A stretch of DNA of 34,194 nt, from the IMG/VR virus record IMGVR_UViG_2541047826_000010, one strand, 5' to 3'. Position numbers and translations under genes: made by a program. The DNA comes from a virus (lineage: Duplodnaviria > Heunggongvirae > Uroviricota > Caudoviricetes). The notes beneath the pieces are model-generated. The model did no database searches. It saw only the letters and a program-made list of their open reading frames with translations, and was not told the origin of the DNA. Position 1 is the stretch's first letter, and each line of letters starts with the position of its first letter. Below are positions 9,418-11,498 of the stretch, one piece after another.

Positions 9418-9843
9418 GTGAATTTTGATTCTCTTTGCGCGTCGCGGTTCAAAGCTGAGCGTTCGCGGTTATCACTCAAGCAGGCTGAAGTAGCAGCCCT
9501 TTGTGGCGTTTCAAGAGAAATGTGGGGGAAATATGAACGAGGGGTTGCTGTTCCCGGAGGTGAGTTACTTGCAGCCTTTGCAAGAATTGGGGCCAATGTA
9601 CAGTTCATTCTTACCGGGGAGTCATCAGGTATAACTTTATCACGTGATGAAATGGAGTTACTGCAGCACTACCGGCAGGCACCATTACAGGTCAAAGGTT
9701 CAGTTTTGTCGGCCTTGACTACTGGCTCCTCCAGAGAACGGGCGGAACAGGTTATTCATGGAGATGTTCTGGGGAATGTTATCAAAGGTAACGTAACCAT
9801 AGGAACAGGTGGAATAATGAACAAAAATACCAAGAGAAGATGA
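9418..9843 (+). CDS. XRE-family HTH repressor-like protein (candidate prophage repressor)
   Basis: LSLKQAEVAALCGVSREMWGKYERG is a classic XRE HTH; divergent from the early operon; GTG 9418 with SD GAGG preferred over ATG 9382, which sits inside the operator palindrome. Confidence 0.7.
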   Translation: MNFDSLCASRFKAERSRLSLKQAEVAALCGVSREMWGKYERGVAVPGGELLAAFARIGANVQFILTGESSGITLSRDEMELLQHYRQAPLQVKGSVLSALTTGSSRERAEQVIHGDVLGNVIKGNVTIGTGGIMNKNTKRR

Positions 9844-10826
9844 GTAAAGAGAAGCAAACAGTTAACGGGGATGTGGGTAACGTTGTCAGCGGTGATGTTA
9901 CCATTCATAACTATTCTGCTGACATACTTCCTTCGGCCCAGCAACCAATTTCGTTGCTGCAAAAACGCGATTTACACAGATTGATGGATGAATTGGTTGA
10001 TCTGGGGGAAAGTAAGCGCGAGCTATGGATGACGATCCACACGAAACTTAATACCAAAACAGTTAATGAAATGACTGCGGCTGATTATCATGGTGCGGTT
10101 GAGATCCTTCAGAGATATGCACAACAGATCCAGAATATGAAGGACTGTAATCTTCTGGTCAGCAAAATAATGGCGCTTACTGACCCTGGGTATCGTCTTG
10201 ACCGTGACAGATACTGTCTGAAGCATTTCGGTACAACCCATCTTAAAGGCCTAGACAAAGAGCAGTTGCAGGCTGTGTTTGGTTATTTTGATGATCTGCT
10301 GAATATTCGTGATGAGAGTAAAACTCTATCACCTCCATCGGAAAGCGGTGCAAAATCAGTCGCAACTGTACCAACCAGAAGCCGGAAGCCTCATGTAGTA
10401 GTGTTGGGGGGAGTGTTAGTTCTTGTAGCAATATTTTTCGTGGGAATGATTGTGTTCGCTGGTAAATGGGGAAATGCCAAAGCAGTAGCTTCTACTGAAA
10501 CCAGCGTTTTTAACATTAAAACCAACGATAAAATAATAGAAGATTCCATCCCCGCACTGCGCAGCATGTTTCCAGGGTTAAATAAGTACTCAGATGATTT
10601 CCATTCGGTTTCAAGCTACAAGCAAAAAACGGGCTGGCATACCCTTAAATTTACTGTATCAGCAAAGGCATCCGTCCCCGAAAATTATAGTGTTAAGGGC
10701 AAGGTTTGTTACATTAACATAAGCCCTGATGGTAGTTATGCTCGGGTTTTGACTGCTCCATGTCGTTCACTGCTACTTGATCAGCAAAGCACTCCTGACA
10801 GTAAATACCGTTTTATTCTTAAATAG
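9840..10826 (+). CDS. bitopic membrane protein, unknown function (N-terminal cytoplasmic domain, one TM, C-terminal periplasmic domain with two Cys)
   Basis: 328 aa; ATG overlaps the repressor stop (ATGA); TM VVVLGGVLVLVAIFFVGMIVFAG; the N-terminus repeats the repressor C-terminal motif. Confidence 0.7.
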   Translation: MSKEKQTVNGDVGNVVSGDVTIHNYSADILPSAQQPISLLQKRDLHRLMDELVDLGESKRELWMTIHTKLNTKTVNEMTAADYHGAVEILQRYAQQIQNMKDCNLLVSKIMALTDPGYRLDRDRYCLKHFGTTHLKGLDKEQLQAVFGYFDDLLNIRDESKTLSPPSESGAKSVATVPTRSRKPHVVVLGGVLVLVAIFFVGMIVFAGKWGNAKAVASTETSVFNIKTNDKIIEDSIPALRSMFPGLNKYSDDFHSVSSYKQKTGWHTLKFTVSAKASVPENYSVKGKVCYINISPDGSYARVLTAPCRSLLLDQQSTPDSKYRFILK

Positions 10827-10910
10827 AAAATAACAGCTGAATTACCATGGGATCAGAAAAAAGACAAAGGCGGCATCATGCTGCGTTCTGAAATTTTAAT
10901 GTAAAAGGTG

Positions 10911-11498
10911 ATGAACATGGCAGGGATTCAGGTTATCGCAGGAAGTTTTCCTAAAGGGTGGGCAAGCATGGGGTTCGGTACCATCGTGTTTGCCAAAAAA
11001 CCAAAACAAGGCTTTCCTGAAAATATTGTATTAAATCTGAAAGAAGAGCTTTTATCGATTGAACTTGCGGATAGTGAAGAGGAAAGCCGTATAGGTAAGG
11101 CGGCAGGCGCAGGTTTGCTTGGTGGATTAATCTTTGGTGGTGCAGGGTTGGTCATTGGAGGTTTGCTTGGTGCGGCGGACAAGACGAAAAAAACTATCAC
11201 TTTTAAGGCAATGTTTACGGGAAATAGGTTACTTCTGGCTAAAACAGATTCAAAAACTTTTGTAAAACTTCAGTCAATTGCTGCTGATAATGCCCATAAC
11301 GCATCTGTAATCAACATGAAGCAAACTAACAGGGGCGATGTTTCTTCTCGTAAACAACTAACAGAAAATCCACAGCAGCAAGACTTACCTGCGCCCGCTA
11401 CAACAGTAAAAATGACTGCCAAAGATAAGTTAGAATCGGCTCTTGGGCTGGGAATCATCGTTATAGCTGTTTGGGCAATAATACACTTCTTTTTTTAG
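10911..11498 (+). CDS. glycine-zipper membrane protein, unknown function
   Basis: GKAAGAGLLGGLIFGGAGLVIGGLLGAA (GxxxG repeats) plus C-terminal TM LGLGIIVIAVWAIIHFFF; SD AAGGTG upstream of ATG 10911/10917. Confidence 0.6.
   Translation: MNMAGIQVIAGSFPKGWASMGFGTIVFAKKPKQGFPENIVLNLKEELLSIELADSEEESRIGKAAGAGLLGGLIFGGAGLVIGGLLGAADKTKKTITFKAMFTGNRLLLAKTDSKTFVKLQSIAADNAHNASVINMKQTNRGDVSSRKQLTENPQQQDLPAPATTVKMTAKDKLESALGLGIIVIAVWAIIHFFF

Follow-up and report, generated by a model that had tools for sequence, protein, structure and literature searches.

The stretch of DNA analysed here, called the window throughout, is IMG/VR virus record IMGVR_UViG_2541047826_000010 (34,194 nucleotides; Duplodnaviria; Heunggongvirae; Uroviricota; Caudoviricetes). 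It is a BcepMu-like transposable prophage of E. coli. At positions 9,418 to 11,498 it carries a putative immunity repressor followed on the same strand by two genes for membrane proteins, which we call gene 1 and gene 2 (Table 1). Sequence comparison gives strong evidence that the repressor and gene 1 form a two-gene architecture in which the C-terminal tail of the one product and the N-terminal head of the other bear matched motifs, and gene 2 appears to be an unrelated, exchangeable member of the same operon.

Results

The repressor operon

The repressor is of the XRE helix-turn-helix type and its gene is divergent from the operon that holds a Ner-like gene and the transposase gene. Its annotated start codon, ATG 9382, is probably wrong, since GTG 9418 has a GAGG Shine-Dalgarno sequence and homologues begin at its equivalent. 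A strong minus-strand promoter-like site lies within the annotated 5' end of the open reading frame. The protein is laid out as a DNA-binding domain, a conserved helical C-terminal half, a short tail motif and a basic end. The C-terminal half is kept across genera and is joined to at least two different DNA-binding domains; strain A33, for example, has another DNA-binding domain, yet an identical C-terminal half and the same gene 1. Recombination breakpoints thus occur within the repressor gene.

An earlier note on this DNA had described the repressor gene, a 328-aa gene and a 196-aa gene as one same-strand unit ended by a hairpin. The unit was found as described. The ATG of gene 1 overlaps the repressor stop codon (ATGA, 4 bp), and terminator calling gave none between the repressor, gene 1 and gene 2, the first being the hairpin at 11500-11517 with its U-rich tail TTTCTGTT. 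This hairpin is modest (-13.1 kcal/mol, z = -2.0). The gap of 90 nt between genes 1 and 2 contains one weak GC hairpin at 10868-10886 (GCGGCA-UCA-UGCUGC) without an adjacent U-tract, which could attenuate read-through into gene 2. Together with the promoterless nature of the gene 2 cassette (see below), the overlap and the lack of a called internal terminator fit a location of both genes in the transcription unit of the repressor, as had been proposed. Expression of both in the lysogen would be the natural expectation from this arrangement.

Table 1. Positions of the repressor operon features in the window.
Feature	Position	Strand	Basis or remark
Promoter-like site TTGACA-17-CATAAT	9379..9407	-	11 of 12 matches; putative promoter of the divergent early operon (Ner-like gene 9143-9331)
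Putative immunity repressor, XRE-type helix-turn-helix	9382..9843	+	Pfam HTH_31 and HTH_3; phrog_8; NCBIfam RstR-like helix-turn-helix
Repressor tail motif GDVLGNVIKGNVTI, 14 residues before the C-terminus	9760..9801	+	Regular-expression match; BLASTP; Smith-Waterman
Gene 1, 328-aa bitopic inner-membrane protein	9840..10826	+	phrog_10002 over the full length; family alignment
Gene 1 head motif GDVGNVVSGDVTI	9867..9905	+	Hardly varies in the family; modelled as disordered by AlphaFold2
Flk_N-type helical domain, residues ~30-160, cytoplasmic	9927..10319	+	NCBIfam Flk PRK10715; pLDDT >90
Single transmembrane helix, residues ~186-208	10395..10463	+	Kyte-Doolittle maximum 3.05, window from residue 186
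Periplasmic alpha/beta domain, residues ~225-328, two conserved cysteines	10512..10823	+	pLDDT >90
Gene 2, 193-aa PH_gly_zipper protein	10917..11498	+	phrog_12025; PF27000 on homologues; reading frame open from GTG 10908 (196 aa)
Glycine-zipper segment, residues ~59-87, between beta-strands of a putative PH-like domain	11091..11177	+	Sequence, hydropathy, low-confidence secondary structure
Gene 2 C-terminal hydrophobic helix, tail anchor	11430..11495	+	Hydropathy (residues 171-193); predicted helix 168-192
Terminator-like hairpin and U-rich tail	11500..11525	+	Hairpin followed by the U-rich tail; closes the unit

The repressor tail matches the head of gene 1

The repressor of the window ends in ...EQVIHGDVLGNVIKGNVTIGTGGIMNKNTKRR, and gene 1 opens with MSKEKQTVNGDVGNVVSGDVTIHNYS. 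BLASTP of one protein against the other gave E = 3e-4, with 11 of 21 residues identical. The Smith-Waterman score of the pair was 48 against a shuffle mean of 20, and 0 of 2000 shuffles scored as high. When the motif was written as a regular expression and searched in the six-frame translations of loci L001-L019, exactly two matches were obtained per locus, one in the repressor tail and one in the gene 1 head, and no other match was present in any of these translations. No part of gene 1 is more conserved in the family alignment than the head. The two copies use different synonymous codons at 5 of their 10 identical residues, which points to selection on the peptide and not on the nucleotide sequence.

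Two other explanations of the repeated sequence were considered and rejected. RNA pairing or ribosome hopping does not fit, as the copies are direct repeats, are not complementary and differ at synonymous sites. A frameshift fusing the repressor to gene 1 was likewise discarded: there is no slippery site, and in locus L014 the two genes are 12 nt apart and gene 1 has its own Shine-Dalgarno sequence.

Matched pairs of other sequence in other prophages

The gene order recurs, with another matched pair, in P2-like prophages integrated at yecA, which were found in 514 of 5426 complete E. coli genomes, including O157:H7. Their repressor tail is ISGGNNRIAGRDYNETKGR (motif GGNNRIAGRDYNE) and the head of the partner is MAVNSNGSNNRVAGRDFHEKN (motif GSNNRVAGRDFHE). 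In these elements (L021, NC_049344; L022, NZ_CP075006 2086153-2092259; L023) the repressor is followed by a 216-aa tail-anchored Flk_N protein, a variable gene (DUF2511 or another) and the integrase. The deposited genome of phage 520873 has the Flk_N gene unannotated and with two frameshifts. A high-G+C BcepMu-like element (L029) carries a third pair, tail GQQFNGPVGGVTSGDVVNERKP (motif QQFNGPVGGVTSGDVVN) and head HQQFNGAVKQVAAGDIKNFVEAP (motif QQFNGAVKQVAAGDIKN). In metagenomic loci such as L033 the tail is VSGSGHRVAGRDYHEKE and the head MSGIELDGDQNRVAGRDYVEIN. These metagenomic loci were found via the motif of the partner, and the upstream XRE repressor ended in that motif in 10 of the 10 that had upstream sequence. 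Beyond the lineage of the window the motif thus takes forms such as NRVAGRDY and QQFNG.V..V..GD, and tail and head still match.

Cognate tails and heads gave Smith-Waterman scores of 39-62 against shuffle means of 16-22, and 0 to 9 of 2000 shuffles reached the score of the cognate pair. Scores across classes were at background (13-26), with the exception of classes B and C, whose motifs are alike. The three motif classes occur across several phage types, and their Flk_N domains are only 30-40% identical.

The motif is also found on a partner of another family. In L042 (1444-1881) and L043 (659-1096) an NRVAGRDY head stands on a 145-aa membrane protein that has no Flk_N domain, with a zinc ribbon (CPTC...CNHC) and two transmembrane helices, and the upstream repressor ends in GHRVAGRDFNEGKE. 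The motif therefore appears portable between partner families, which favours motif-to-motif pairing, or a shared third party, over a binding pocket in Flk_N.

In the head regions of 53 representatives, G (2.8x), N (2.8x) and V (1.65x) are over-represented and L (0.26x) and K (0.46x) under-represented, with no bias in Q or P. Some partners have two pseudo-repeats against a single one in the repressor. The patterns AGRD and GxVxGxV resemble single beta-solenoid rungs. Partners in a further group of loci, type D (Pseudomonas-like, IMG/VR L024-L028), have an N-terminal helix and then a 'NSGNVNFGTQVNIG' motif, akin to the N.G.Q pattern of PP and RHIM.

Gene 1 is a bitopic protein with a Flk_N domain

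The 328-aa protein had been called bitopic, and it does have one strongly hydrophobic helix (Table 1). NCBIfam Flk PRK10715 matched residues 19-147 with E = 2.9e-12, at a score of 46.6 bits where the equivalog cut-off is 353. Gene 1 thus shares a domain with Flk and is, from its sequence, no Flk orthologue. The Pfam label PF27202 (Flk_N) is a precomputed one on close homologues and is flagged weak. In the AlphaFold2 model the head (residues 1-29) is disordered, the helical region 30-160 is confident, the linker and transmembrane segment are of low confidence, and the alpha/beta domain at 225-328 is again confident.

A basic stretch, RSRKPH, precedes the transmembrane helix and two conserved cysteines come after it. 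In loci L012 and L013 the gene is split, and the C-terminal domain is a separate lipoprotein gene. These three observations indicate a cytoplasmic Flk_N domain and a periplasmic C-terminal domain, from which we infer that the head also lies in the cytoplasm. No protease domain or motif was found in gene 1 with Pfam and NCBIfam, and no NTPase domain was found with the same two libraries. A Foldseek search of gene 1 against BFVD gave nothing at E <= 0.001, and sequence searches of the PDB with the family profiles of gene 1 and gene 2 gave no relative.

Homologues of gene 1 fall into 24 clusters, all from Enterobacterales. They stand directly 3' of an XRE-type repressor in BcepMu-like prophages of E. 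coli, Salmonella, Yersinia and Serratia and in one metagenome, and most have the 4-bp overlap with the repressor gene. From this arrangement gene 1 would be a conserved partner of the repressor, translationally coupled to it.

An exhaustive profile search widened the family to 112 clusters at 50% identity. About 65 of these are Flk_N proteins, mostly of 185-225 aa, with the head motif, Flk_N and a C-terminal anchor and without the periplasmic domain. Tail anchoring was seen in the short relatives (42 of 53 representatives); gene 1 instead has a folded domain of 120 residues past its helix. Every head-motif member whose genomic context was examined was prophage-borne, and chromosomal Flk (P0135, P0136, P0141, P0143, P0144) is a motif-less minority of the family. 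A further 45 or so clusters are stand-alone relatives of the periplasmic domain (P0081), lipoproteins and secreted proteins with the pattern 'CPGLDKY ... GHxC ... K.AC'. A lipobox was present in 19 of 42 examined, and one relative is fused to two Ltp repeats (PF07553, E = 5.5e-28), a domain of exclusion lipoproteins.

Gene 2 and the variable third slot

ATG 10917 is the probable start of gene 2, in keeping with RefSeq and with a ribosome-binding site, so that a protein of 193 aa is favoured over one of 196. The glycine zipper claimed for it in the earlier note is present as GAGLLGGLIFGGAGLVIGGLLG (residues 62-87), with a visible GxxxG run, and there is a C-terminal hydrophobic helix in addition. 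The protein matched phrog_12025, a PHROG without known function, over its full length. PF27000 (PH_gly_zipper) is precomputed, and flagged weak, on homologues 71-97% identical. The AlphaFold2 model has a pLDDT of 36, and its secondary structure runs from four beta-strands through the glycine zipper and two more strands to a helix, a linker and the C-terminal helix. This order and the lack of a signal peptide fit a cytoplasm-facing, tail-anchored PH-like domain with a glycine-zipper hairpin dipping into the membrane.

A tblastn search with gene 2 against 50,697 phage records gave no match. In Citrobacter a homologue 71% identical was found on 179 contigs, behind a different repressor of 121-136 aa and without gene 1. 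Among 12 IMG/VR loci with gene 2, gene 1 was present in 7 and absent from 5, in which gene 2 directly follows a different repressor. The DNA similarity of the window (10903-11299) to the Citrobacter loci begins just 14 nt 5' of the gene 2 ATG, which indicates that the mobile unit is a promoterless coding cassette in need of upstream transcription.

The gene that follows gene 1 differs from prophage to prophage. In E. coli FEA3 the slot holds genes for a 203-aa protein and a DUF2441 protein, in Salmonella for an 89-aa protein, in Yersinia for a 249-aa membrane protein and in L012 and L013 for a lipoprotein; in Serratia no third gene follows. Other prophages have lipoproteins, small zinc-ribbon membrane proteins, a different glycine-zipper protein (L026) or DUF2511 there. 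On these comparisons gene 2 would be one of many alternative small envelope cargo genes of the lysogeny operon, and a role in exclusion or in another form of membrane-level lysogenic conversion is plausible.

The prophage and its relatives

In the open reading frame map of the window, the minus-strand early genes encode a Mor activator, a gp16-family protein, Gam, an ExeA-like ATPase and an rve-type transposase (6084-7853), a DUF3102 protein, an IclR-like helix-turn-helix protein and the Ner-like protein (9143-9331). From 12110 onward the plus strand encodes a holin, an SLT transglycosylase, Mu-type head proteins and contractile-tail proteins. Chromosomal prophages of numerous E. coli strains match region 9300-11600 at 100% identity, and in the AR_0015 copy the insertion adjoins grxA. 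The full cassette was present in 97 of 5426 complete E. coli genomes. At least a partial match to the query sequence was present in 581 of the 5426, mostly to its ends only.

About 460 E. coli genomes have the same backbone with another cassette, in which a short repressor is accompanied by a Dam methylase and a P-loop gene. Sister prophages L002, L005 and L006 have a repressor of 115-118 aa at the same site, with a differing C-terminal end ...FYTQPKPGKIAG, and beside it a Dam methylase gene in the opposite orientation and small hypothetical genes. This cassette contains neither the tail motif nor a Flk_N gene in these three prophages.

The segment had been said to be more A+T-rich than the flanking phage genes, as a hint of acquired cargo. 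G+C is indeed 41-45% over 9001-11500 and 53-60% in the flanks, but the A+T-rich tract is not confined to the two genes: it begins at about 8500 and spans the whole immunity region. Cargo is an apt word for gene 2 and not for gene 1, which accompanies the C-terminal half of the repressor in different genera and phage types alike.

Convergent with the operon is a P-loop NTPase gene (11536-12012, minus strand; phrog_3787), for which the RefSeq name 'ABC transporter ATPase' looks unfounded. It has a 158-aa short form in the window and L012 and is 242-247 aa long in the sister prophages with the Dam cassette. Truncation of this gene by the cassette was rejected, since the short form is also found in L012.

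Record L020 (OM835952, 'Klebsiella phage KP12 clone KP12_2', classified under Vequintavirinae) also contains a BcepMu-like element, in which genes for a transposase, an IclR-like protein, a repressor and a 177-aa lipoprotein are joined by Dam and DUF2441. The element is probably a co-purified host prophage and not part of KP12.

Discussion

Comparison with known systems

Flk, a cytoplasmic protein with a tail anchor, keeps the flagellar export gate in its early-secretion mode (PMC13344023). The Flk_N domain of gene 1 is homologous to that of Flk (Fluke, RflH), which regulates the flagellar type III secretion-specificity switch of Salmonella and E. coli. Both proteins face the cytoplasm and are anchored in the inner membrane by a hydrophobic helix C-terminal of Flk_N. 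They differ in that chromosomal Flk lacks the N-terminal G/N/V motif and that gene 1 has the extra periplasmic domain of 120 residues, and nothing links the phage protein to flagella. Flk is not known to be encoded beside a repressor.

The matched tail and head recall the amyloid-signalling pairs, namely HRAM, PP and sigma in fungi and BASS of Bell-domain/NLR systems in bacteria, in which the products of adjacent genes have the same terminal motif. Such pairs were discovered because the C-terminal motif of one protein equals the N-terminal motif of the product of the neighbouring gene, and their motifs are biased to Q, N, G, V and I and poor in K, P and L (10.1101/2020.01.06.895854). As in these systems, the motif here varies by lineage and matches within each pair, and some partners have two pseudo-repeats to the single one of the repressor. 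The heads are rich in G, N and V and poor in L and K, which resembles the reported bias, but they show no bias in Q or P. The differences are that there is no NLR/STAND NTPase and no Bell/HeLo effector, the partners being a DNA-binding repressor and a membrane protein, and that BASS is reported in multicellular bacteria, the pairs described here belonging to unicellular Proteobacteria and their phages. The likeness is one of sequences, fibril templating being a trait of the known systems.

A partner gene directly 3' of an XRE-type repressor gene and cotranscribed with it, its product proposed to act on that repressor, is likewise seen in ImmR-ImmA (ICEBs1 and many prophages), RstC-RstR and Qtip-cI. 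The latter two are precedents for sequestration or aggregation of a repressor. Gene 1 is however not a COG2856 zinc metalloprotease and showed no homology to ImmA, RstC or Qtip in Pfam, the PHROGs and NCBIfam. It is membrane-anchored, and the recognition proposed for it is by matched terminal motifs.

Lambda cI-rexA-rexB and P22 sieA/sieB, whose exclusion genes are expressed in the lysogen, also have membrane-protein genes in or next to the repressor unit, a plausible likeness for gene 2 and the third slot. The two genes here are no obligate pair, and they have no such match in Pfam, PADLOC or the PHROGs. RexB is a multi-pass channel; gene 2 would instead be tail-anchored, with a putative PH-like domain and a glycine-zipper hairpin.

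A proposed coupling of the repressor to a membrane protein

We read the interval, with a probability of roughly 0.55, as two unrelated members of a lysogeny operon, gene 1 coupling the repressor to the membrane by pairing of motifs and gene 2 being a moron. The reading starts from gene order, the independence of the two genes, their domain content and the matched motifs across lineages; from these we infer a physical pairing, a transfer of signal, expression and whatever phenotype would follow. The repressor tail and the gene 1 head would pair directly, as G/N/V-rich motifs resembling single beta-solenoid rungs. The pairing would tether repressor molecules at the membrane protein or convert them there, tethering or sequestration being the simplest model. 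The periplasmic or membrane part of gene 1 would sense the state of the envelope, and this would reach the immunity switch as a change in repressor availability, in either direction, through holding or inactivating the repressor. Gene 2 would most likely be expressed by read-through from the repressor promoter.

Several observations weigh against this reading. Type D loci keep the order of repressor and partner without a matching repressor tail (score 12), so motif pairing is not universal; the sole similarity between repressor and partner in these loci is a weak helix resemblance, RLARIVEMLE and RLAKLAEKLH. Within class A, fine-scale covariation is not evident: in L036, for example, the tail has AAGGTY and the head VAGRDY. 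Adjacency, even when conserved, might by itself mean no more than genetic linkage at a recombination breakpoint. The family of the periplasmic domain also includes stand-alone lipoproteins, one of them fused to Ltp repeats, which fits exclusion as well as it fits a sensor role. As for gene 2, the PH-like fold is drawn from the name of a Pfam family and a secondary-structure pattern, with a poor model.

The earlier note had proposed the two proteins as a candidate rex- or sie-like module for abortive infection or exclusion, in which the 328-aa protein could be the sensor and the glycine-zipper protein the effector. Both are membrane proteins, they share a strand and, from the arrangement, a transcription unit with the repressor, the terminator comes after gene 2, and the genes occur together in the 97 E. 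coli genomes and in 7 of the 12 IMG/VR loci. We nevertheless consider a single module improbable, because each gene is found without the other: five other genes, or none at all, fill the third slot behind gene 1, and gene 2 also stands behind a different repressor where gene 1 is absent. Moreover, gene 1 covaries with the repressor and not with gene 2. The note had recognised no known defence signature, and none was detected: PADLOC gave nothing significant (best E = 0.014 on gene 1, none on gene 2), Pfam and NCBIfam matched no defence family and no Rex or Sie model, and the PHROGs gave nothing annotated. Exclusion by gene 1 itself, with the periplasmic domain blocking the DNA or ejection proteins of an incoming phage and the motif serving for co-localisation or co-regulation only, is possible but doubtful. 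Gene 1 lies in the lysogeny operon, and the family of its periplasmic domain consists of lipoproteins and secreted proteins of prophages. The Ltp repeats fused to one relative are the exclusion-lipoprotein domain of phage TP-J34, and the KP12_2 lipoprotein lies directly 3' of a repressor. Most members of the family (the ~65 Flk_N clusters) lack that domain, however, and exclusion does not explain a conserved core that faces the cytoplasm and matches the repressor.

The matching motifs in two proteins of one operon could also serve a third party, for example a host protease, adaptor or chaperone, as docking site or degron, the head of gene 1 being a membrane decoy that tunes repressor stability. 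A variant would make the head a pseudosubstrate for Flk_N of gene 1 itself, which would otherwise bind the repressor tail. The C-terminal tails of the phage Mu repressor govern its degradation by ClpXP, and in ImmR-ImmA the partner that inactivates the repressor is encoded directly downstream, both of which count in favour of docking. At least three motif classes in related hosts argue against one fixed host receptor, and the motif on the non-Flk_N partners of L042 and L043 argues against a Flk_N pocket. In the AlphaFold2 model the head is not docked on Flk_N, and gene 1 has no protease motif. We regard docking as unlikely on balance. Least of all do we expect the similarity of tail and head to be functionless, a relic of a junction duplication kept by linkage. 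The motifs are short (13-17 residues) and of low complexity, and breakpoints do lie inside the repressor gene, but tail and head agree in three motif classes and in several phage types with Flk_N domains only 30-40% identical, conservation in the family is highest in the head, and the synonymous codons of the two copies differ.

A bolder form of the coupling between repressor and gene 1, which we hold tentatively and think unlikely, is a cross-beta or beta-solenoid assembly with tail and head as single rungs. On an envelope or periplasmic signal, for example contact with the ejection machinery of a superinfecting phage, the membrane protein would nucleate and template repressor tails into an inactive polymer or release them. 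If true, this would be an SOS-independent, prion-like induction or immunity switch, and it would extend amyloid-type signalling to unicellular Proteobacteria and to the control of phage lysogeny. About 11% of complete E. coli genomes would then carry the module (97-99 BcepMu-like and 514 P2-like, of 5426).

Implications

Flk_N and PH_gly_zipper are recent, uncharacterised Pfam entries. In the literature searched we found no description of Flk_N in phages, of PH_gly_zipper, or of a repressor and membrane protein with matched termini. Paired-motif signalling and operons of a repressor and its partner are both known; the searches suggest that a matched-motif pair of repressor and membrane protein is new. 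The pattern of matched tail and head motifs has so far come from amyloid signalling in fungi and multicellular bacteria, and is here met in a wider range of systems. Annotators should not count genes 1 and 2 as a single defence system. Small envelope cargo genes have a hot spot in the third slot of these operons. Flk itself, which lacks the motif, may be a domesticated member of a family carried mainly by prophages.

If the repressor is physically wired to the membrane protein, these prophages would have a control of lysogeny distinct from RecA cleavage, soluble antirepressors and quorum-sensing inputs. Such control would be common in clinically relevant E. coli, by way of the P2-like prophages of O157:H7 and O103 and the BcepMu-like prophage of an O25:H4 clinical isolate. 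Swapping or deleting the motifs offers a testable handle on how events at the envelope could reach the immunity switch.

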